Positions 10,585 through 21,618 of a stretch of 64,000 nucleotides of DNA are shown here, one piece after another; the first letter of the stretch is position 1, and the number at the start of each line of letters is the position of its first letter. The notes beneath the pieces are model-generated. The model was not told the DNA's origin. It ran no database searches and saw only the letters and a list, made by a program, of their open reading frames with translations. A program made the translations under genes and the position numbers. Origin of the DNA: an uncultured Myxococcales bacterium (lineage in GTDB: Bacteria; Myxococcota_A; UBA9042; CAIXZC01); assembly GCA_964626565.1 (NCBI GenBank), contig CAZVFX010000020.1:6152-70151 (forward strand). The letters are read 5' to 3'.

Positions 10585-10636
10585 GACCGTGTCCCCGTTC
10601 TGCAGTCACCCCCCATCTATCAGATGGGAGTTGTCT

Positions 10637-10665
10637 ATTCTGGCCCCGCAGGGGCCTTTCGTCAA
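10637..10665 (-). promoter_or_regulatory. Candidate sigma70 promoter of the bc/nap operon
   Basis: Minus strand TTGACG-N17-CAGAAT about 50 nt upstream of the ATG at 10584. Confidence 0.4.
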
Positions 10666-10762
10666 CCGCAAGTTGACAAATGGACATGTTTATCCCTAGT
10701 TAGCTACTCAACTGAGCTCTTTCGAGATAGACACGAGGTGCAGCTTGGGAACGATTCAGCCG

Positions 10763-11560
10763 TTAGGCAAGGTCATATACTGCGGTATTTCGGTCATTCA
10801 GGTGAAAAACTAAAGATTCCTTGACCGTCTCGGGGCTGATGGTCGCGGTGATCATCTGCTCGCCGCCTCTGGCTTGCGCGATTACCCGGGCGCAGGGGTC
10901 CACTACCATGGAGTGGCCGAAGTAGTAGTTGCCGTTGGCGTCGGCGCCTACTGAGTTCACTGCGATGAAGTGAATCTGGTTGTCGTAGGCCCTCGCCCGG
11001 TTGGTTAGAGACCAGATGTCGAAGTCACGCAAGAGCGCCGACGGCCGGATCACTACGTCCGCACCCTTCAGCGCCAGAGTCCGCACCAACTCGGGGAAAT
11101 CACCATCGTAGCAGATAACCATCCCGATCTTTGCAAACGGGGTGTCAAAAACCTCAACCTCGGTGCCCGGCGTCGTGTAGATCTGCTCCGTTGGGAAGGG
11201 ATGGGTCTTGCGGTACACGCCGATGATGTTACCGACGTCACCGATGAGAATCGACGCGTTGAAAATTACGCCCCCCGTCCCCTGCTCCCAGATGGGCCAG
11301 ACCACGTGCACGCCGTGGTGGGCCGCCCGTGCCTGAATCGCCTCGGTCCACGCCCCGGGAATCGGTTGCAGCAGCTTCCAGAATTCCTCTTTGGGCATGC
11401 CCGGATGGAAGCCGGTAGTGATGGTTTCGGGAAACACCACCAGGTCCGGCGAATGCTCCGCCACCGCCCGGTCCAGCCAGTCAATGCACTTGGTGATGTT
11501 GGCATCGGCATCCAGCGGCTTCACCGCAAACTGAATGCAGCAGACTTTGAACTCTTTCAT
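10763..11560 (-). CDS. Carbon-nitrogen hydrolase (nitrilase superfamily)
   Basis: Glu-Lys-Cys triad in FPETITTG, YRKTHPF, ICYDGDFPE; start reset to ATG 11560 (MKEFKVCC), just after the cyclase stop. Confidence 0.92.
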   Translation of the reverse strand: MKEFKVCCIQFAVKPLDADANITKCIDWLDRAVAEHSPDLVVFPETITTGFHPGMPKEEFWKLLQPIPGAWTEAIQARAAHHGVHVVWPIWEQGTGGVIFNASILIGDVGNIIGVYRKTHPFPTEQIYTTPGTEVEVFDTPFAKIGMVICYDGDFPELVRTLALKGADVVIRPSALLRDFDIWSLTNRARAYDNQIHFIAVNSVGADANGNYYFGHSMVVDPCARVIAQARGGEQMITATISPETVKESLVFHLNDRNTAVYDLA

Positions 11561-11562
11561 GG

Positions 11563-12327
11563 CTAGTGTTCCTCGAAGGCCACCACCCGGCAGAATGCAG
11601 ACTCGCCATCCACGAACCGCCACGGGAAGCAACCGATCTTGATGCGTTTGTTCAACACCTCGTCGATCTGGCCGCCGATGTTCTCCACGTGAATCACGCC
11701 GTCCGGGAACAACGCCAGGTGCATCAACTGGTAATCTTTGGTGCTGAAGAAATCGTCCAGCCCCTTGCCGTAGTTCTTCTGCAACGCGGCGTCCGCCTCA
11801 ATGGCCAGGTGCGGCATCCAATCCTTGATCTTCGTATTGAACGGATGGTCCGCAGACCCGCAATCGACCCCGATCCACTTGAGCTTCAGGTCCCGCGCCC
11901 AGTCGGCAAATTCCATGGTCGGACCCGGGTGTTTGCACATGTAGCGCACTTCGTCAGCCTCCGGCTGGTCCCACCCGTAACGGTGGTACCCGGTATTAAT
12001 TATAAGAATGTCCCGGGGCTTCACCTCTACCCGATCGGTAATATCTTTCGAAGTGTAGACTCCATAGTCCACCGCGATGTCGGAAAGGTCCACGACTACC
12101 GCGTCGCCGTACAGCTCCTCCAGCGGCAGCGACGCGATGTCCTTGCCCGCACCGTAAAAGTGCAGCGGGCCGTCCAGGTGCGTGCCCACATGATTCGAAG
12201 TGGTGATCAACTGCCCGTTGGCGCCGTTGGGCGCCAGGCGTTTGAAGAATTTTACCTGGAGCGGCTCATAAGTTGGCCACGGCGGAGTCAGGATGCCGCA
12301 TCTTTGTGACAGGTCGTACAGTTTCAT
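11563..12327 (-). CDS. Cyclase / kynurenine-formamidase-family metal hydrolase
   Basis: HVGTHLDGPLHF (HxGTHxDxPxHF), HVENIGG, C-terminal RVVAF. Confidence 0.92.
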   Translation of the reverse strand: MKLYDLSQRCGILTPPWPTYEPLQVKFFKRLAPNGANGQLITTSNHVGTHLDGPLHFYGAGKDIASLPLEELYGDAVVVDLSDIAVDYGVYTSKDITDRVEVKPRDILIINTGYHRYGWDQPEADEVRYMCKHPGPTMEFADWARDLKLKWIGVDCGSADHPFNTKIKDWMPHLAIEADAALQKNYGKGLDDFFSTKDYQLMHLALFPDGVIHVENIGGQIDEVLNKRIKIGCFPWRFVDGESAFCRVVAFEEH

Positions 12328-12339
12328 TCTTTACCCCCT

Positions 12340-13548
12340 CTACTCGCGATAGTCGTTCAGGTTCAACAGCTTCCCGTGGCTTATCACCGCCGCGGGTTCG
12401 GCATGATTACGAAGTGCATCTGTGATGTTGTTTTCCTTCAGCACCACCAGGTGAGCAGTCATTCCCACGTCCAGGCCAAAATCCAATACGTTGATGCACT
12501 TGGCAGCCGCGGTGGTAACCATGTCGTACAGCACATGCATCTCCTCTACGGTGGTCATCCATAGAAGGTGGGAATTCAGAAAGGCCACTTCCAGCATATT
12601 GTTGCGGCCGTACGGGTAGTAAGCGTCGGAGATGTCGTCTTGTCCCAGGCAAACAAGGTTGCCTTCAGCAAGCAGCTCTTTCACCCGGGCGTGAAGCGGC
12701 CCGGTGTGCGGGTCGCTCACAACCCCCATCTTCGCCATCTTCAACAGCGCGGACAGCTTCTGAAAATAGGGAGTTGGATACAGCGCCATGGCCCGGGCGT
12801 GATGGGCCAGCCCCCTTCCCTCCATGCGATTCTCGATAAGCGCGGTGGCCAGCATTTCCGTAGTTTTGAGACCCGCGTCGCCAGCATCATCCACCAACAT
12901 GGAGACGTCAGTGTTAAACTCCTTGGCCAGGGCCACCATCTTGTCCACGTGGTCCTGCTCATCGGCTTCGGTAAACTCGATCCACGGGATGCCGCCAACC
13001 ACGTCAGCGCCCAGCTCCATGGCCTCCCGCACCAGCTCCGCCGTCCCCGGCTCCCGGGCCACGCCATCCTGGGGGAAAGCCACCACCTGCAGGTCAACGA
13101 TCCCCTTGAACTCATCCCGCACCTTCAGCAGCGATTTCAGCCCGATGAGCTGCGCCTTACTGTCGATATCGGCAAACGCCCGAATGTGCAGGTTGCCGTT
13201 GAGCGCCGCCAGCTTCACAGCCCTGCGCACATTGGGCACAATCCACTCTTCGTCGTACTGCTCCTTGACCTTGGCCGCGGACTCGATCGCGGTCATCGCC
13301 TTGCCCATGCCGTCTGCATGGTAGTCGGCCAGCGCGGCTTCGGACATCTTCTCCAGCGTATACACTTTGCACAGGTGCAGGTGAGTGTTCACAAACGACT
13401 CGGTGACCAGCCCGCCTCCCGCATCCACCACTTCCGCGTCCGGTGCCGAAATCCCCTCTTCGATGGCCGCAATCCGGCCGTCATTTATGAGGATGTCCAC
13501 AACTTCGCCGGTGCGACGCAACCGGCCGTTCTTGATGAGAATGCTCAT
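12340..13548 (-). CDS. Metal-dependent amidohydrolase, cytosine/creatinine deaminase-like
   Basis: THLHLCK (HxH), VVAFPQDG, VVGGIP, HHARAM, LGQDDISDAYYPYG, GMTAHLVV. Confidence 0.88.
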   Translation of the reverse strand: MSILIKNGRLRRTGEVVDILINDGRIAAIEEGISAPDAEVVDAGGGLVTESFVNTHLHLCKVYTLEKMSEAALADYHADGMGKAMTAIESAAKVKEQYDEEWIVPNVRRAVKLAALNGNLHIRAFADIDSKAQLIGLKSLLKVRDEFKGIVDLQVVAFPQDGVAREPGTAELVREAMELGADVVGGIPWIEFTEADEQDHVDKMVALAKEFNTDVSMLVDDAGDAGLKTTEMLATALIENRMEGRGLAHHARAMALYPTPYFQKLSALLKMAKMGVVSDPHTGPLHARVKELLAEGNLVCLGQDDISDAYYPYGRNNMLEVAFLNSHLLWMTTVEEMHVLYDMVTTAAAKCINVLDFGLDVGMTAHLVVLKENNITDALRNHAEPAAVISHGKLLNLNDYRE

Positions 13549-13564
13549 TATTTACCCCCCCAAT

Positions 13565-14965
13565 TCATGCCTGGTCTTTTCTGGCAAAAGCTGCGAGCGC
13601 CGCCTCGAACATCTCCCGCGGCGCATACAACAGGCCGGCGCCGACCTGGCCAATGCCCGGCTCTTTGTGCGCGATGCCCGTATTGATAATCGGTGTCGTG
13701 CCCGTCTCCACCACTTTTCGAATGTCCACCCCCACCGGGGTCCCCGCGAAATCCAGCCCGGGCATCTTGTAATGAAGATGCCGGCCGACACAAATTCCAT
13801 ACATCTCACGGGTGTATCTGATCGCGTCCTCCGGCGTGCCACCCACGAACTGCACAATGGCCGGCGCGGACGCCATGGCGAACCCGCCAATACCCGCCAC
13901 CTCCGAAATGGTCGAATCGCCCAGATCCGGATTGGCGTCCTCCTGAGAAAAGCCGGCAAAGAACAGCCCTTCCGGCATGCCCGCCGGCGCGGTGAACCAC
14001 CTGTCTGAAAGACCAGCCACCCTGATGCCGATTTCGGTACCGTTGCGCGCCATGGCGCTCACCAACGTGCTGTTCTCCAACCCCAACACCGTGTCCGCCA
14101 CAGCCTTGCACGCAGCCATTGATACGTTGAGGTAGAAATGCACGTTCCCGGAGATGAACTCGGCTATCTGCCCGATGGTCTTCTTGCGCAAGCCGGTGTT
14201 GAGCATCGCGGCGGTCAAGTCCCGCAGCAGCATGGTGGTAGCAGCCACGTTTCGATTGTGGCACTCATCGCCCATCTGCAACGCCTGGGCGGTGAGGTTC
14301 CTCAGGTTGATACCGCCCGACGCTGCCACAGCCTTCTTCAACGCGGGCGCCAGCACCCTCTCCATCCATTTCAGCCGGCGAATCACTTCAGAGTCGTAGG
14401 CACCGAATCTGAGCACTTTGCCCAGCCCCTCGTTGAGGGTGCAATAGGCGGTGTTTCCGAATGTCTCGTTGCGCACCACCCACACGTACATGGAAGGGGA
14501 AACCACCCCGGCCATAGGGCCGACGGTGGAGTGATGATGACAGGGGACCAACTTCACCCGCCCCTTCGTTACCAGTCGCTCCGCGGCCGCGCACGAGCGC
14601 GCCTTGCCCTCGTACATAAGCGCGCCCATGACTGCTCCCCGCACCGGGCCACACATGGCCTCCCATGCTACCGGCGGACCGGCGTGGAGAATCGTGTCGG
14701 GCGTCATACCGGGGATGACATCGAGCGCTCGCGCCACGTCCACCAGCACAGCTTCACTGTCGATAAGCCGCTTGACCCCTTCCTCGTTGGCCCGGTCGAT
14801 GGCTTCGTGGTCCAGAGAATCCAGCAATTCGGCTGCGGGAAGCGGCGGTTTCCACTCCACCTGCACCGCGGGGACTCCCTGGTGGCGAAGCGATTCACCG
14901 AACGAATCGAGGCCGAACGACACCACCTTGAGATCATCGCCCAGAAGTTTCGCCCACTTGCTCAT
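13565..14965 (-). CDS. yahG: DUF1116 protein, YahG-type (AllG/YlbE paralog family)
   Basis: N-terminal V.QVEWKPP segment as in YahG; ILHAGPP, PCHHHSTVGPMAG, LNEGLGKVLRFGA, GDECHNRN, NPDLGDSTISE, INTGIAHKEPGIGQVGAG. Confidence 0.88.
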   Translation of the reverse strand: MSKWAKLLGDDLKVVSFGLDSFGESLRHQGVPAVQVEWKPPLPAAELLDSLDHEAIDRANEEGVKRLIDSEAVLVDVARALDVIPGMTPDTILHAGPPVAWEAMCGPVRGAVMGALMYEGKARSCAAAERLVTKGRVKLVPCHHHSTVGPMAGVVSPSMYVWVVRNETFGNTAYCTLNEGLGKVLRFGAYDSEVIRRLKWMERVLAPALKKAVAASGGINLRNLTAQALQMGDECHNRNVAATTMLLRDLTAAMLNTGLRKKTIGQIAEFISGNVHFYLNVSMAACKAVADTVLGLENSTLVSAMARNGTEIGIRVAGLSDRWFTAPAGMPEGLFFAGFSQEDANPDLGDSTISEVAGIGGFAMASAPAIVQFVGGTPEDAIRYTREMYGICVGRHLHYKMPGLDFAGTPVGVDIRKVVETGTTPIINTGIAHKEPGIGQVGAGLLYAPREMFEAALAAFARKDQA

Positions 14966-16518
14966 CGCTCACCTCCCCCCGGGGCCAGCTTGCCCCGGGC
15001 GCAAACCAGGGCCGCAAACCGGGCCGCCTGAGCGTTGGAAGGCATAACCACGACACCCATCTCGTTGAGGGCCCGCTTCTGCCGATGATAGCCCTGAGGA
15101 TCGGCGGGCGTGCCGGTGAGGGACGCAACCACCGCCACATCCCTGTCGGTCGCCCTCTTCAATGACGCAGCCATGGCGCCGGCCGGATCGGGATGGGACC
15201 CGTACCCCAGCACCACATCCAGGAGAAGCACGGCAGTCTGCTTGTCTTCAGCTTCCTGAACGATGCGTTGGTTCCTGGATTCGGAATCGATCATCGGGTG
15301 AGGTCGTCCCTGGGTGAATTCATCGTCTCCCAAGTCCACCAGGCAGTGCCCCTGGCTCACTCGGCTGTCGGCAAGTTTCAACCTCGGGTCCAGTGGGATG
15401 TTACTCCACACGTCGCCTACCACTTCGCTGAGCACCAGCATCGCTTCGTCACACAACGTTCCGCCCGTAAACAAACCGCGAATATACCGGCGCCGGGTCG
15501 CCAGATTGGAACCAAGCGCCTCGGACAAAGCCAGCGTTTCCGCATCAATGCCGGAGCTGCGGGTCAGCGTCTTTTCGCCCCGGCTCCACGCCACGGACAC
15601 CAGCGCCGCCTCTTCAAGTGACGACGCAAAGCGCACCCGCCGGCTACCCCTTCCGGGCCGCTGTCCCAGGAAGTTCACCACGTACCGTTTTTTGCCTCTC
15701 CCGAGCTCCTCTAGGATGAGATTCGCGACATCGTCATCGGGAGGCTTCGACACCAGGCAGATCACCTTGGTTGCCGGATCGGCCTCCAGACGCCGGATCC
15801 CTTCGAGCATGGTCAGCCCACCAACCTCCACAGACAGGTCGCGTCCCCCGGTGCCGATGGCCTGGGAGACGCCTGCGCCTTCCCGATCAATGAGACAGGA
15901 AACCTCCTGGAGGCCGGTGCCCGCGGCGGCCACAATGCCGATATATCCGCGCCGCACCACATTGGCGAAACCGATGGCGATTCCATCCACAATTGCCGTG
16001 CCGCAGTCCGGCCCCATCACGAGCAGACCTTTGTCCGCACCCAGCCTTTTCAACTCGATTTCATCGGCCACCGGCACATTGTCACTGAAGATAAATACGT
16101 TGAGGCCCGCATCCAAGGCCCGCCGGGCTTCCCGTTTCACGTACGGGCCCGGAATGGAGAATAACGCCAGGTTGGCGCCGGGCAACAACTCCCGGGCGGA
16201 TTCCAAACCTGCGGGCCGATGCGCGGTACCTTCCCTACGCTCATTGCGCCCCTGCAGCAACCGGTCCGCTTCATCCGCAGCCCGTTCTCCGGCCTCATCA
16301 TCAAGAGCCGAAATGCACAGGACAAGGTCGTTGGCCCCCGCCGCGGCCGCTTCCGGAGCCAACATGCCCGCGTCCGACAGCAGCTTGAGGTTCGCCGGCG
16401 TCCCCATGACGCAAGCCACTTCATCCACTCCTTCCAACGCCCTCACCGCAGCCGCGATGGTCATTAGAAACACCGAATCCTGGTACATGTTCTTCTTGAC
16501 GACGTTGTGCAAAACCAT
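14962..16518 (-). CDS. fdrA: FdrA/YahF-family acyl-CoA-synthetase-like protein
   Basis: YQDSVFLM, FSDNV, MGPDCGTA, GTGGRDLS, GLFTGGTL, GRPHPMID (phospho-His); start reset to ATG 16518 with GAGGG RBS. Confidence 0.92.
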   Translation of the reverse strand: MVLHNVVKKNMYQDSVFLMTIAAAVRALEGVDEVACVMGTPANLKLLSDAGMLAPEAAAAGANDLVLCISALDDEAGERAADEADRLLQGRNERREGTAHRPAGLESARELLPGANLALFSIPGPYVKREARRALDAGLNVFIFSDNVPVADEIELKRLGADKGLLVMGPDCGTAIVDGIAIGFANVVRRGYIGIVAAAGTGLQEVSCLIDREGAGVSQAIGTGGRDLSVEVGGLTMLEGIRRLEADPATKVICLVSKPPDDDVANLILEELGRGKKRYVVNFLGQRPGRGSRRVRFASSLEEAALVSVAWSRGEKTLTRSSGIDAETLALSEALGSNLATRRRYIRGLFTGGTLCDEAMLVLSEVVGDVWSNIPLDPRLKLADSRVSQGHCLVDLGDDEFTQGRPHPMIDSESRNQRIVQEAEDKQTAVLLLDVVLGYGSHPDPAGAMAASLKRATDRDVAVVASLTGTPADPQGYHRQKRALNEMGVVVMPSNAQAARFAALVCARGKLAPGGGER

Positions 16519-16582
16519 GCTGGTCACCCTCGGAGCCTTGGGAGTGTTTCCGGCGCCCGCGTTTTGACTCCGTTCAGTAAAC

Positions 16583-16611
16583 TTCCCAACGTTTGGCAAG
16601 TCAAGTAGAAT
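16583..16611 (+). promoter_or_regulatory. Candidate sigma70 promoter for the Sel1 lipoprotein gene
   Basis: TTCCCA-N17-TAGAAT in the divergent intergenic gap. Confidence 0.35.
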
Positions 16612-16659
16612 CGATCTGACATGTTTGTATCAGGCGCGTGCCCCCGCGAGGTGAGTTCA

Positions 16660-17426: not shown

Positions 17427-19808
17427 CTATCTCAGCACCCAGGTTCTGGAGCCGTGCTTCACCTTGATACCAAAGCCGTTGAACCCGGGAAGGAGGTTCA
17501 CCAGGGGCGGCGATTTGCGCTGACCGGAGGCCTTGTCCAACGTTACCTTCCTCATGCCCAGGTCGTAGATGACCCGGTAGACCGCATCCCCCAGGTCAAC
17601 TTTGCGGGGGAACACCCGGTCGAGCCAGGACCGCACCCCGTCCGGCAGAGCAGGAGCAAGAAAGTCAGCTTCGGACAAGAGCTGCAAATCCGCCCCGCTC
17701 TCCACGCCCAGCTCCGACACCCGCTCCAGAACCCATTCATCGATGACCGGCACCGCCTTGTGGTCATCGGGCAGTTCGACCGGTTCCTCCAGGAACTCGG
17801 GTGCCAGGTTGCTCCTCCGCAGCCTCAAGTAGAGTACCAGTGCATCCAGCCGGTCCACTGTTTCCGCCAGGGCGCGGGGAAACAGCCTTCCCTCAACGAA
17901 GAGCCTGGCGATGGCTCCGCAGGCCAACTCTCCTTCCGGCATCTCCTCGCGTTTCTCCAACACCCTGCCTGCGTAGACTCGGTCCACCACTGCAAAAGCC
18001 TTGCCCCTGTCAACAATGACCCTTCCTACCGAGTCATCTCCCAGTCCCGCTTCCACGAGCCAGGTGAGGGGCATGGGCATGGCCACGCTGGCGATGAGGG
18101 AGGTCTTGCGGTGACCGACCCCGATTGCCCTCACCTCCAGGGCTGCCAGCGCGTCCACTTTGTCCTCGTTAACTGCGCTCTCCCGGGCCAGCATTATTTC
18201 CGTCCCACCGTTGGCCCAGGCCACCCCTTTCTTGCGACGCCGGGCAATATAGGCGCAACGGCTATCAGCACGCAGTGCGGCCATGGCCAGGGCCTTTCTG
18301 TCGGGAGACCTGTCCATGTTTCCGGCCCCCTTCAGGCCGAAAGCCTGACGCAACCGCTTCCGCGCGGAGCGAGCTTCCTGGAGCGAAAACCGTGAGAGTC
18401 CGTGACGGCCCGGCTGCCCTTCCCTGACGGCCCGGATCAAAGCGACCGCATCACATCCGCCCGCCTTGAGGTCGTCCTCCTTTTCGTCGCTGCCGGGACG
18501 GCCGGTAAACATGATGCGACCCACTGAAAGTGCGGCAGCCAGGTCCAATGCGTCATCCAGGCAGCCCAGCCCCTTTGCCTCCACCAGAAGATTGCCGAGG
18601 AAAGGGTCCAAAGGCAGGCTGAAAAGCGACCTGCCACGGTCGGTGACAACCCGGTCTTCCAGTGCCCCCAGCGCGGTGAGGTCTCCCACCGCGGAAGCCA
18701 CCGCGAAATCTGGAGGCGGGTCCAGGAATCTCAGCTCGTCAACCCGCACTCCGCATGAAGCAGAAGCAAGTACCAGGGGCACCAGCGATTCCCGGCGCAT
18801 CTCGGGCGGGGTGATTTCAGTGAGCCGGGCATCTTTGCTCCACAATCGGAAGCACACACCGGGCGCGGTCCGGCCCGCTCTCCCCGCGCGCTGCTCAGAG
18901 CTGTCGGCAGCAACCGGAACCAGGGTCAGGTAACCCCGTCCGTTGTGGTAGCGAGTGCGGCGCACCAACCCCGAATCCACCACCACCCCTACCCCGGGGA
19001 TTGTGATGGAGGTTTCCGCCACGTTGGTGGACAGAATCACCCGCCGCTTGGGGCCGGGTTGAAAAATGCGGCTCTGGTCCTTCAATGTCAGGCCGCCGTG
19101 TACCTGGAGCACTTCGAGATTCTTGAACGCGGCCAACGCCTGGGCGGCTTTGGCGATTTCTCCCTTGCCCGGCAGGAAAACGAGGAGGTCCCCCGGTATT
19201 TCAGACGACGCCCTCACCGCCGCGCGAATTCGGTCCTCCAACCCGCGCACTTCGGGCAGAAACGCCTCACCCGCCAGGTGGCGAGCAGCAACCGGGAACT
19301 GCCTGCCTTCCGCGGCCAGGTGCACACCTCCCAGATACCCGGCAACCCGGTCGCCGTCCAAAGTCGCGGACATCACGGCCAGCCGCCCATCGTACGAGTG
19401 TAAAAGCAGGGCCAGGATCAAGTCGACATCCAGCCGTCGCTCGTGGAATTCGTCCAGGATAACGGTGCCGAAGTCCAGCGTTCTGCCACCCGCCAGCCAC
19501 GCCAGCACAACGCCGGGCGTGGCGAACAGAATCTGCGTGTCTGCCGACGTCCGGTTGTCGTCTCTAACGCTGTAGCCGACCTTCCGGCCCAGCGGGACCC
19601 CTTCCAGTTCCGCCACCCGCGCGGCCAGCCCCCGGCAAGCAACCCGCCGCGGCTCCACCACCAACACCCGTCCGCCATCCACACACCAACGCGGCACCTG
19701 GGTGGATTTCCCCGACCCGGTAGGCGCGGTAATCACCACCGGCCCTGCACCGAGACACTGCAGCAATTCAGGCCGTAGCGGTTCTATCGGTAATTCAGAG
19801 CTAGTCAT
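17427..19808 (-). CDS. hrpB: ATP-dependent DEAH-box RNA helicase, HrpB family
   Basis: APTGSGKST, LDEFHER, MSATLD, STNVAETSITIPG, QRAGRAGR; start taken at ATG 19808. Confidence 0.9.
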   Translation of the reverse strand: MTSSELPIEPLRPELLQCLGAGPVVITAPTGSGKSTQVPRWCVDGGRVLVVEPRRVACRGLAARVAELEGVPLGRKVGYSVRDDNRTSADTQILFATPGVVLAWLAGGRTLDFGTVILDEFHERRLDVDLILALLLHSYDGRLAVMSATLDGDRVAGYLGGVHLAAEGRQFPVAARHLAGEAFLPEVRGLEDRIRAAVRASSEIPGDLLVFLPGKGEIAKAAQALAAFKNLEVLQVHGGLTLKDQSRIFQPGPKRRVILSTNVAETSITIPGVGVVVDSGLVRRTRYHNGRGYLTLVPVAADSSEQRAGRAGRTAPGVCFRLWSKDARLTEITPPEMRRESLVPLVLASASCGVRVDELRFLDPPPDFAVASAVGDLTALGALEDRVVTDRGRSLFSLPLDPFLGNLLVEAKGLGCLDDALDLAAALSVGRIMFTGRPGSDEKEDDLKAGGCDAVALIRAVREGQPGRHGLSRFSLQEARSARKRLRQAFGLKGAGNMDRSPDRKALAMAALRADSRCAYIARRRKKGVAWANGGTEIMLARESAVNEDKVDALAALEVRAIGVGHRKTSLIASVAMPMPLTWLVEAGLGDDSVGRVIVDRGKAFAVVDRVYAGRVLEKREEMPEGELACGAIARLFVEGRLFPRALAETVDRLDALVLYLRLRRSNLAPEFLEEPVELPDDHKAVPVIDEWVLERVSELGVESGADLQLLSEADFLAPALPDGVRSWLDRVFPRKVDLGDAVYRVIYDLGMRKVTLDKASGQRKSPPLVNLLPGFNGFGIKVKHGSRTWVLR

Positions 19809-21618
19809 ACTCCGGCACACAGTCGGCGAGGTTCTGCTTGATATCGATGATGTTGTACATCAACTCGAGGAGATCGTCCGGATCAAGGTCGCTGGCGTGA
19901 TAGTAGGACCCGCCGCCATCCTCGGCGATCTGCTTGTTGGTATGCGCTCCGTCGCCCTGGGACAGGTCAATGACGTGGGTAGTGACCATAATCGGATCGC
20001 CATGATAGTCGTCCAGTCGCCACGGTGTATCGGTGTTGTACGGCTCCGAGCCACCGGTGTAAGGGTGAGGATAACCTTTGCACACCCCGCCTTGGCAGGT
20101 GGCGCCGTCGAAGCAGTCGTCGTCGATGTCACACCCGAGGCCGTAGCGGAACCGCTTGGCCTGAATACGCGGATTAAAGAAGTCGGAAAGCTCTGTGGGC
20201 GGCTCCTCTACGCCGTCGGTAAACAGGAGGATCATGTTGGTTCTGCACGGACCGAAGGGGTCCTTGCATTTGCCGTCCTTGCAATAGTAGTTGCGGCTGC
20301 CGCAATCCTCGTCGGTTTCGCACGACTTGCCGTTGATGACTACCTGCTTGCGATACACTTCACCGGCGTAGAACATGGACCGGCCCAGTGGTGTGTTGCC
20401 CAGCGCTCTGAGTTCCGGGTCGGTGTGATACCAGCACACCTTCGCACCCGCGTCCGGGTCATTGGCGCAGAAACCGCCCGGACAATCGGGGTGACTGGTG
20501 CACGGCTCAGCGGTGGGCCCTACCGCCTCATCAAAATTGACCCACTTCTGAGCCAACCCGAAGTTGTCCTCGGCAAAGGTCTTGGGGAAAGGCACGCACA
20601 TGATTTCATGGAGATATTTCTCAAAGTAGCTATTCTCTCCAGTGACATGTGAACCGTCATCGCCGGTCATGTAGTTGGAGTCAGCGAAACCGAGCCCATA
20701 CCAGCCCCGCCCCATGGAGAACAGGTCGTTGCAAGAGGTCACCGGCGGGTGTTTGATGCGGTCCGCGAAGCGGGTCAGTACGAGGCTGAACGCCTTTAGT
20801 TGCTCCGACTGGAAGAACTTATTGAACACGTACTTAGACATCCCGAGTTTGGACTGCGGGCAGTTGGCATCTTCGCACTGTGGGAACGGCTGGGCCGAAC
20901 AGCCACCGGGGCAGATACAAGGCACGGTATCCAGGAAGCCCATGGACGCCATTGAGCCCGACGTGTCGAATATCACCAGGAGATTGTGGTCGATGAGTTC
21001 GCATTCATCCTCGAAGCAGCCCATACCGGGCGGACAAGGCGCAGTGATGTGACCCGAACCGTTGGGCAGGCACTGGACTTTCAGCCCGTTCTCACAGTGG
21101 TATTCACCCGGATTGCACAGAGTTTGGAGGCACTCACCACCCCAGCAGCCAAAACCCTCGGAACATGCAGTTTCGTCCCACGCTTCGCCGTCGTCCAGGC
21201 AGGCCGCGGCCAGCAGCGGATCCAGGCACTTCTTTTCGCCCGGAATGCAGAACGTGGTTACGCACATGTCCTCCTTGCACCATTGACCCTGAATTGGGCA
21301 GTCATCATCCACCATGCAGTAGAGGCATTGGCCTGAATCCTCGTCGCAATAGCCGGGCGGGCAGCCAAAGGGGCAGAGGCCCAGGTCGGGCTGAGAAATA
21401 TCCGGGATGGTCTCGGTCGCATCTCCGGGTTCAGGCACGTCGGCGGTTACCTCCGGGAGGGTCAAATCCGCGCCCACCTGGTCGCCTGAGACGGTCTCCA
21501 GGTCCCCGCCCGCGGTGGAGTCTGAAGTTGTGTCGCCGGCTGCGCCGCTGGTGCTGCAGGCCATAAGACAGAGCGCCAGGGACAACAGGCAGCCCGTTAC
21601 CATTCTCCAATCGGTCAT
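19801..21618 (-). CDS. Cys-rich VWA-domain lipoprotein (CglB-like architecture)
   Basis: Lipobox LMAC; acidic linker; Cys-rich repeats; MIDAS DTSGS, TPLG, FTDG. Confidence 0.78.
   Translation of the reverse strand: MTDWRMVTGCLLSLALCLMACSTSGAAGDTTSDSTAGGDLETVSGDQVGADLTLPEVTADVPEPGDATETIPDISQPDLGLCPFGCPPGYCDEDSGQCLYCMVDDDCPIQGQWCKEDMCVTTFCIPGEKKCLDPLLAAACLDDGEAWDETACSEGFGCWGGECLQTLCNPGEYHCENGLKVQCLPNGSGHITAPCPPGMGCFEDECELIDHNLLVIFDTSGSMASMGFLDTVPCICPGGCSAQPFPQCEDANCPQSKLGMSKYVFNKFFQSEQLKAFSLVLTRFADRIKHPPVTSCNDLFSMGRGWYGLGFADSNYMTGDDGSHVTGENSYFEKYLHEIMCVPFPKTFAEDNFGLAQKWVNFDEAVGPTAEPCTSHPDCPGGFCANDPDAGAKVCWYHTDPELRALGNTPLGRSMFYAGEVYRKQVVINGKSCETDEDCGSRNYYCKDGKCKDPFGPCRTNMILLFTDGVEEPPTELSDFFNPRIQAKRFRYGLGCDIDDDCFDGATCQGGVCKGYPHPYTGGSEPYNTDTPWRLDDYHGDPIMVTTHVIDLSQGDGAHTNKQIAEDGGGSYYHASDLDPDDLLELMYNIIDIKQNLADCVPEYD

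Follow-up and report, generated by a model that had tools for sequence, protein, structure and literature searches.

The stretch of DNA analysed here (the window) comprises 64,000 nucleotides of contig CAZVFX010000020.1 from an uncultured Myxococcales bacterium (assembly GCA_964626565.1; 7.6 Mb, 300 contigs, 94.2% complete). At 10763-16518 on the minus strand it carries five open reading frames (ORFs) that share one direction and follow each other in the order fdrA, DUF1116, amidohydrolase, cyclase, and CN-hydrolase (Table 1). Since the junctions are tight (a 4-nt overlap, followed by gaps of 16, 12, and 2 nt), a single operon is the natural reading, and we regard the five genes as one operon. 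An earlier reading of the letters alone (the sequence-only reading) had placed five coupled genes at exactly these positions, and the ORF listing, the Pfam and NCBIfam searches, and the junctions confirm it. Gene families and a census of related loci also support its view that a catabolic operon, probably of the N-heterocycle or ureide type, is built here round a pair of FdrA and DUF1116 proteins. In E. coli AllFGH, these two families act with a third protein of the DUF2877 family (AllH), converting oxalurate and phosphate reversibly to oxamate and carbamoyl phosphate (Kim & Kim 2024, PMC11326118). The window operon has no gene for this third protein, and its amidohydrolase has an altered active site.

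All five proteins could be assigned to families. FdrA matches Pfam Ligase_CoA (3.9e-39) and CoA_binding and exceeds the cut-off of NCBIfam NF004760 FdrA (487.6 bits, cut-off 433), while its partner, encoded by a single-copy gene in the assembly, is a clear member of PF06545 (7.5e-97, 323.5 bits vs a cut-off of 27). The third protein belongs to Amidohydro_3, is cytosine-deaminase-like, and stays under all NCBIfam cut-offs. In the cyclase-fold protein (PF04199; 4.6e-32, 111.6 bits) the metal-binding motif HxGTHxDxPxH is intact (HVGTHLDGPLH, residues 46-56). The CN-hydrolase (PF00795, 7.2e-49) reaches no NCBIfam equivalog cut-off, but the motifs of its Glu-Lys-Cys triad are present as FPET (Glu), YRKTHPF (Lys), and ICYDGDFPE (Cys). 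We place the start of fdrA at ATG 16518, as had been proposed before, because homologues align from residue ~28 of a longer ORF with a TTG start and this ATG is preceded by a ribosome-binding site (GAGGG). The CN-hydrolase most likely starts at ATG 11560, 2 nt past the cyclase stop and with GAGGA 10 nt upstream, and not at TTG 11632.

Table 1. Genes and flanking regions of the operon, in window coordinates
Feature	Position	Strand	Remarks
fdrA (AllF/YahF family; succinyl-CoA-synthetase-alpha-like subunit)	14962..16518	-	518 aa from ATG at 16518; operon gene 1
DUF1116/AllG-family subunit	13565..14965	-	466 aa; start overlaps fdrA stop by 4 nt
CodA/AtzC-derived amidohydrolase, 'LVDD type'	12340..13548	-	402 aa; by-similarity label is cytosine deaminase
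Cyclase-fold (kynurenine-formamidase-like) metal-dependent hydrolase	11563..12327	-	254 aa; PF04199
Nitrilase-superfamily C-N hydrolase	10763..11560	-	265 aa from ATG at 11560; last in operon
Divergent intergenic region 5' of fdrA	16519..16620		102 bp; position of the DUF2877 gene in relatives
Spacer between operon end and next operon	10585..10762		178 bp; with GC-rich hairpin

That genes for DUF2877 and carbamate kinase are missing from the operon had been noted before, and profile searches bear this out. PF11392 gave no match in the whole assembly, with a positive E. coli control. A custom 306-node hidden Markov model (HMM), built iteratively from 59 locus-derived DUF2877 proteins and run with all filters off (--max) against the six-frame translation, reached a best E value of 1. 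A further profile of 295 positions (alignment A2) found nothing in the assembly and was positive in 5/5 control genomes outside the alignment. No remnant is left 5' of fdrA, where 102 bp offer no room, and no DUF2877-like frame was seen anywhere in the window or the genome, so that DUF2877 is very probably truly absent from the organism. The case in which both missing genes are encoded elsewhere, named earlier as refuting a pair without its third subunit, applies to the carbamate kinase, which we found on contig C1, and not to DUF2877, which is nowhere in the assembly. The DUF2877 proteins of the 15 loci in alignment A2 share only ~20% mutual identity, yet the glycine-rich motifs GLGPGLTPSGDD and GxTSGxD are invariant among them and could form a small-ligand or phosphate-binding site.

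The comparison set comprised 80 loci of species genomes, another 80 of metagenomes, and additional ones of relatives; their genes were annotated by comparison to the window proteins, the Yah and All proteins of E. coli, and the DUF2877 HMM. The usual order over many phyla is DUF2877-FdrA-DUF1116-cyclase. On the DUF1116 tree the window falls into a clade of five rows (95% local SH-like support) together with L010 (genome G011, same family as the window), L011 (genome G006), L105 (a metagenome), and L014 (a short contig). L010 and L105 read DUF2877-FdrA-DUF1116-amidohydrolase-cyclase-CN-hydrolase, that is, the five window genes in the same order after a DUF2877 gene. The 5-kb contig of L011 shows DUF2877-FdrA-DUF1116 and ends after DUF1116, and the genome of L014 also has DUF2877 according to the PF11392 search. 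The window and L010/L105 are most alike in the cyclase (78-80% identity) and the amidohydrolase (75%), followed by DUF1116 (69-70%), the CN-hydrolase (57-58%), and FdrA (54-56%); the closest database homologues (P0121, P0122) are 94-97% identical. Since the same operon begins with DUF2877 in the closest relatives, the loss appears to be specific to the window lineage and recent, and the operon is, judged from these alignments, a 5'-trimmed derivative of a six-gene operon. A separate two-subunit design does not agree with this, as DUF2877 comes first in the nearest relatives G011/L010, G006/L011, and L105. The hydrolases are also shared more widely. CN-hydrolase homologues (44-58% identical) are found at the FdrA loci L010, L105, L028, L063, L071, L080, L086, L087, L107, L126, L187, L188, and L207. 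The window cyclase is 50-80% identical to cyclases of such islands (80% to that of L010), and at 55 of the 99 loci surveyed a cyclase gene comes immediately after DUF1116 (50-73% identity to the window), while in the window it lies one gene further on.

The remaining pair carries no sign of decay that we could recognise. Of the alignment columns with a conservation of 95% or more, FdrA retains 62/62 (126 sequences; the invariant His in GRPHPM is among them) and DUF1116 103/103 (176 sequences); all five ORFs are intact and free of stops. The lower identity of the window FdrA to its relatives is explained by a faster clock of FdrA compared to DUF1116, as L010 and L105 share 73% in FdrA and 89% in DUF1116. 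A faster evolution of FdrA after the loss of DUF2877 was considered and ruled out, since its mean identity to 119 outgroup loci is 46.9% vs 47.3-47.8% for DUF2877-bearing relatives. Because the core is maintained, the FdrA/DUF1116 pair is probably active without DUF2877, to which we assign a probability of roughly 0.55. Results on the E. coli system bear on this: an allH deletion mutant still formed 1.2 mM oxamate, compared to 17.7 mM in the wild type and 0 in the allF and allG mutants, and AllF and AllG were washed off His-tagged AllH (PMC11326118). Both results agree with a third subunit that is accessory and only loosely attached.

DUF2877 has been lost or relocated repeatedly, though only in a minority of cases. 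Among 54 loci flanked by at least 6.5 kb of upstream and at least 6 kb of downstream sequence, DUF2877 was present in 46, a cyclase in 34, the large subunit of a molybdenum (Mo) hydroxylase in 34, an NCS2 permease in 26, thiolase-fold/DUF35 pairs in 16, PucR in 14, and carbamate kinase in 13. With a carbamate kinase at only 13/54 loci, its absence from the window operon is ordinary and does not distinguish this operon, although it had been put forward as such a feature. An unbiased clustering of neighbours over the loci returned three-subunit Mo hydroxylases, NCS2 xanthine/uracil permeases, PucR, thiolase-fold/DUF35 pairs, a 236-aa protein without known function, and AS-amidases or CN-hydrolases. 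Of the 73 other genomes with DUF1116, 61 have a PF11392 match (4/5, 12/18, and 45/50) and 12 do not. Genomes without DUF2877 include G047 (100% complete), G082 (96%) and G368 (94%), the latter two with FdrA-DUF1116-cyclase-CN-hydrolase, and G049 (94%), where FdrA-DUF1116 lies ~11 kb from a block of amidohydrolase, Mo-hydroxylase large and FeS subunits, and further on cyclase and CN-hydrolase, and where the absence is upheld by the full-length profile. The DUF2877-less loci do not form a clade of their own; they are scattered on the DUF1116 tree, with 13 label changes for 13 rows. Intact pairs of this kind, provided by nature, lend themselves to testing whether the third protein has a catalytic or an accessory role.

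Several of these loci hold further genes of note. In two DUF2877-less genomes of one genus (L187 3636-4811 (+) and L188 6681-9473 (+)) a conserved ORF of ~390 aa without Pfam match lies immediately 5' of FdrA; its two copies are 37% identical, not DUF2877-like, and in one genome in frame with FdrA. As candidates for DUF2877 analogues, the unknown ORFs 5' of FdrA in G082, G368, and G049 were rejected, since they have no similarity to DUF2877 and the window has no such ORF. At L185 (G047:C14:40000-59999), in the 100% complete genome without DUF2877, FdrA-DUF1116 adjoins a urea-carboxylase-like protein of 1263 aa (biotin carboxylase, CT_A_B, CT_C_D, and biotinyl domains), and a divergent PreT/PreA-like dihydropyrimidine dehydrogenase is also adjacent; the pair may act there on allophanate or another acylurea. 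An additional gene of 330-384 aa without Pfam match is found between FdrA and DUF1116 or just 5' of DUF1116 in L014 (630-1784), L112 (8838-9815), and L130 (8911-9993), and a 43%-identical homologue is encoded in the genome of the window itself (C38:46696-47862). In the isolate genome of Calidifontibacillus oryziterrae strain ZYK (L085, NZ_ANOK01000005.1) DUF1116 is followed by carbamate kinase, with no FdrA detected in the 21-kb locus and no PF11392 match in the genome.

The amidohydrolase was previously taken for a deaminase, with deamination as the first step of the route. Its best solved relatives are indeed E. coli CodA and AtzC (both ~1e-47), and the CodA residues His61 and His63 (HxH of beta-1), Gln156, His246 (beta-6), Asp313 (beta-8), and Asp314 are kept, whereas Leu stands in place of the beta-5 metal ligand His214 and Asp in place of Glu217, the catalytic residue of the HxxE motif. 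Thus, the enzymes of the window, L010, and L105 read SMLVDDAGD where CodA has DVHCDEIDD and other locus-linked enzymes have DMHVDETDD, and HLHLCK replaces HIHLDK, with LCK after the HxH in place of LDK or LDT. The 120 closest database clusters (67-97% identity) all carry SMLVDDAGD and 118 of them HLHLCK; their labels comprise Caldisericota, Kiritimatiellia, Anaerolineae, Bacillota, Polyangia, and others, and many are named 'cytosine deaminase'. By these sequence criteria the LVDD proteins are a distinct and strongly constrained subfamily for which deamination cannot be assumed, and with His214 and Glu217 of CodA lost and only 28% identity to YahJ a deamination as the first step is unsupported.

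The genomic context of the LVDD genes points to Mo hydroxylases. In G049, G419, G198, G221, and G718 the LVDD gene directly adjoins a two-subunit hydroxylase of the XDH family (large and 2Fe-2S subunits), and in G428 a 2Fe-2S subunit gene lies directly 5' of the LVDD gene near the contig start, with no large subunit flagged. G726 has the LVDD gene within the FdrA operon. Taken together, 6 genomes have the gene next to large or FeS subunit genes, and 4 have it inside the FdrA operon. Among 401 genomes sampled from the phylum of the window, all six LVDD-bearing genomes are among the 18 with DUF1116, and two more LVDD carriers, found independently in another phylum, have DUF1116 as well, although kinship among genomes inflates these counts. 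The subfamily is conserved at 67-77% identity over many phyla, and its members are as a rule wrongly labelled cytosine deaminase. The link to Mo hydroxylases and DUF1116 systems provides a handle on a putative, widespread route by which uncultured bacteria would recover nitrogen and energy from nucleobase-type compounds.

Some of the functions that are encoded beside such operons at other loci are found elsewhere in the genome. The one bona fide carbamate kinase, on contig C1 (380 bits, cut-off 358; none in the operon), is encoded at L003 6806-8930 (+), where it overlaps a carbamoyltransferase of the OTC/ATC fold alongside a divergent TetR regulator. The carbamoyltransferase reaches no NCBIfam cut-off, N-acetylornithine carbamoyltransferase being the best match (247 bits vs cut-off 288), and the pair looks like a second, classical module yielding carbamoyl phosphate. 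Out of three large subunits of the XDH family in the genome, the one on contig C84, with a 2Fe-2S subunit beside it, and the LVDD-linked hydroxylases are reciprocal best hits (47-48% identity), while the other two share ~32% with the latter. The route first proposed, supported as to its catabolic type, left out the usual partner, a Mo hydroxylase, for which C84 offers a candidate. Permeases of the NCS1 type (cytosine/uracil/allantoin) gave one strong and one weak match in the genome, both unlinked to the operon. No more pathway genes were found in the neighbourhoods of the C84 hydroxylase, the C17 NCS1 permease, and the carbamate kinase, and in the window region Pfam scans revealed no XDH-family hydroxylase, NCS2 permease, or PucR adjoining the operon.

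By analogy to AllFGH, the operon and the unlinked genes can be arranged into one pathway, for which we see about even odds. A pyrimidine-type ring (e.g. uracil or cytosine) would be oxidised by the unlinked two-subunit Mo hydroxylase of C84, with the LVDD amidohydrolase acting at this entry stage. The cyclase-fold metal hydrolase would then act on the oxidised ring, which would resemble barbiturate, and open it to an N-acylurea (e.g. ureidomalonate), on which FdrA/DUF1116 and phosphate could act as AllFGH does on oxalurate, giving carbamoyl phosphate and an amide (e.g. malonamate). The CN-hydrolase would convert the amide to the acid and ammonia, and the unlinked carbamate kinase would turn carbamoyl phosphate into ATP, CO2, and NH3. 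That the substrate is specifically uracil or cytosine is rather doubtful. A more far-reaching proposal, which we make tentatively and at somewhat less than even odds, is that FdrA and DUF1116 constitute a self-sufficient minimal acylurea phosphorylase, for which DUF2877 would be dispensable and has been lost repeatedly, and that the LVDD proteins are an unrecognised subfamily with a remodelled metal site, performing a new step that is coupled to a two-subunit Mo hydroxylase in a pyrimidine-type pathway yielding carbamoyl phosphate.

Several points speak against a working pair in such a pathway. E. coli needs all three subunits for near-normal flux (PMC11326118), so that without DUF2877 the pair may work very slowly or not at all. 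The assembly is a draft of 300 contigs, and a relocated DUF2877 gene could fall into the absent ~6%. Substrate, intermediates, and order of steps are drawn by analogy to AllFGH and the aerobic barbiturate pathway, and because the active site of the LVDD enzyme is altered, its reaction does not follow from its family. The C84 hydroxylase is connected to the operon by best-hit similarity only, the operon itself encodes neither a hydroxylase nor a transporter or regulator, and an NCS2 permease (PF00860) has no match in the genome. The malonate-utilisation marker malonyl-CoA decarboxylase gave no match in the genome either, in a search whose control was likewise without a match.

Two alternatives concern the missing subunit itself. 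Inactivation of FdrA/DUF1116 by the loss of DUF2877, leaving an operon that is decaying or kept for its hydrolases only, is in our view unlikely. The drop in oxamate in the allH mutant from 17.7 to 1.2 mM (PMC11326118) and the presence of DUF2877 in 61/73 DUF1116-bearing genomes are in line with such a remnant; five intact ORFs, the retention of every highly conserved column in FdrA and DUF1116, and the lack of excess divergence are not. In addition, the window lineage is ~30% diverged from its DUF2877-bearing relatives, though the loss may be younger than that split, and equally intact DUF2877-less pairs recur in other lineages. A split system, with the third subunit supplied in trans from a gene in the unassembled ~6%, draws on the completeness of 94.2% over 300 contigs and has precedents, since DUF2877 is found elsewhere in 4/5 genomes outside the phylum with a DUF2877-less FdrA locus and likewise in G198, G221, and G144. 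Three negative profile searches of the assembly (best E value of 1), an ancestral DUF2877 position that is covered by contiguous sequence and empty, and several more complete genomes that also have no DUF2877 make it highly improbable here; the rough chance that one given gene lies in the missing 6% is below 10%.

The other two alternatives concern the chemistry. An AtzC-like amidohydrolase could act on an s-triazine of the ammelide or cyanurate type or on another ureide, with the cyclase opening the ring and FdrA/DUF1116 phosphorolysing biuret, allophanate, or oxalurate, and no pyrimidines would be involved. The amidohydrolase is equally similar to AtzC and CodA, nitrifier genomes carry allFGHK beside triuret and biuret genes (PMC12625717), and the FdrA/DUF1116 pair of G047 stands beside a urea-carboxylase-like protein. 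We nevertheless judge this route quite unlikely: the dominant partners at the loci, XDH-type hydroxylases, NCS2 nucleobase permeases, and PucR, are nucleobase-type signals, the operon holds no homologue of AtzD/barbiturase, BiuH, or AtzF, and Gln156, Asp313, and Asp314, which bind the pyrimidine in CodA, are retained in the LVDD enzyme. Very unlikely, finally, is a function of FdrA/DUF1116 as ADP-forming acyl-CoA synthetase or CoA ligase that activates the acid released by the hydrolases and does not need DUF2877. The sole characterised member of the FdrA family was identified in 2024 as a carbamoyltransferase and not a CoA ligase (PMC11326118), the recurrent energy-linked neighbour is carbamate kinase, and no homologue of an ATP-grasp beta subunit is present, while the CoA_binding and Ligase_CoA domains of FdrA, its resemblance to the alpha subunit of succinyl-CoA synthetase, and the thiolase-fold/DUF35 pairs at 16/54 loci would agree with this function. 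For the step of CoA activation in the sequence-only reading there is nothing but Pfam domain names. We favour an FdrA/DUF1116 pair that is active without DUF2877 in a pyrimidine-type route.

Beyond the 102-bp divergent region a gene on the opposite strand starts at 16621, and downstream of the operon lies one with a respiratory function and no relation to it (flavoprotein, Rieske, cytochrome b, and multihaem cytochrome c according to Pfam). In the 178-bp spacer the hairpin GGCCCC-TGC-GGGGCC (10642-10656), ~105 nt past the CN-hydrolase stop on the operon strand and without a U tract, could be the operon's own terminator rather than an operator of the respiratory operon; a terminator scan called no U-tract terminator in this spacer, and promoter and terminator scans did no better than chance. 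Genes for HrpB-like helicases lie near the operon (window 17427-19820 (-)) and near the C84 hydroxylase (L195 6652-9141 (-)). A rearrangement by recombination between them was dismissed, since the paralogues are only 42% identical, and their positions are regarded as coincidence. Elsewhere in the genome, contig C17 (L215 14002-16620 (+)) encodes an ORF of 872 aa in which an ATPase domain of the NifH/frxC type is fused to a domain of the nitrogenase-component-1 type (Oxidored_nitro).

Compared to known systems, the window operon combines features of several. It shares with E. coli AllFGH and AllK the adjacent, translationally coupled FdrA and DUF1116 subunits with their conserved residues and the presence of a carbamate kinase in the genome. 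It differs in that AllH/DUF2877 is missing from the assembly, the kinase is unlinked, no allantoin genes form its context, and three hydrolases absent from the all cluster share the operon of the pair; allantoin-derived oxalurate is therefore an unlikely substrate. The E. coli arrangement on which the sequence-only reading had drawn, allFGH and yahEFG, is correct, but its label of a yahF/yahG-type operon needs revision, as the pair is no closer to YahF and YahG (42% and 44%) than to AllF and AllG (39% and 47%). Like yahEFG-yahIJ, the window has YahF-like and YahG-like genes together with a gene of the amidohydrolase superfamily, but it has neither YahE (DUF2877) nor an adjacent YahI; its amidohydrolase is 28% identical to YahJ and has lost the HxxE motif that YahJ keeps, and the genes for cyclase and CN-hydrolase have no counterpart in the yah cluster. 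CodA and AtzC, of the mononuclear deaminase subtype, have the same fold and the retained residues in common with the LVDD enzyme, and are set apart from it by the exchanges at His214, Glu217, and after the HxH as well as by the tie of its gene to Mo hydroxylases and DUF1116. The operon belongs with the widespread islands of FdrA/DUF1116/DUF2877 with cyclase and Mo hydroxylase, of which the nearest relatives of the window are full members. The window has their FdrA-DUF1116 core and cyclase in one operon, as well as the CN-hydrolase found in a subset of them; it lacks DUF2877 as well as a neighbouring Mo hydroxylase, permease, PucR, or carbamate kinase, and holds an LVDD-type amidohydrolase inside the operon. 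A literature search for the route of these islands found no publication on it and returned AllFGH and one metagenomic survey. While AllFGH-type systems and their widespread relatives are known, the loss of DUF2877 together with an LVDD amidohydrolase in the operon is new.

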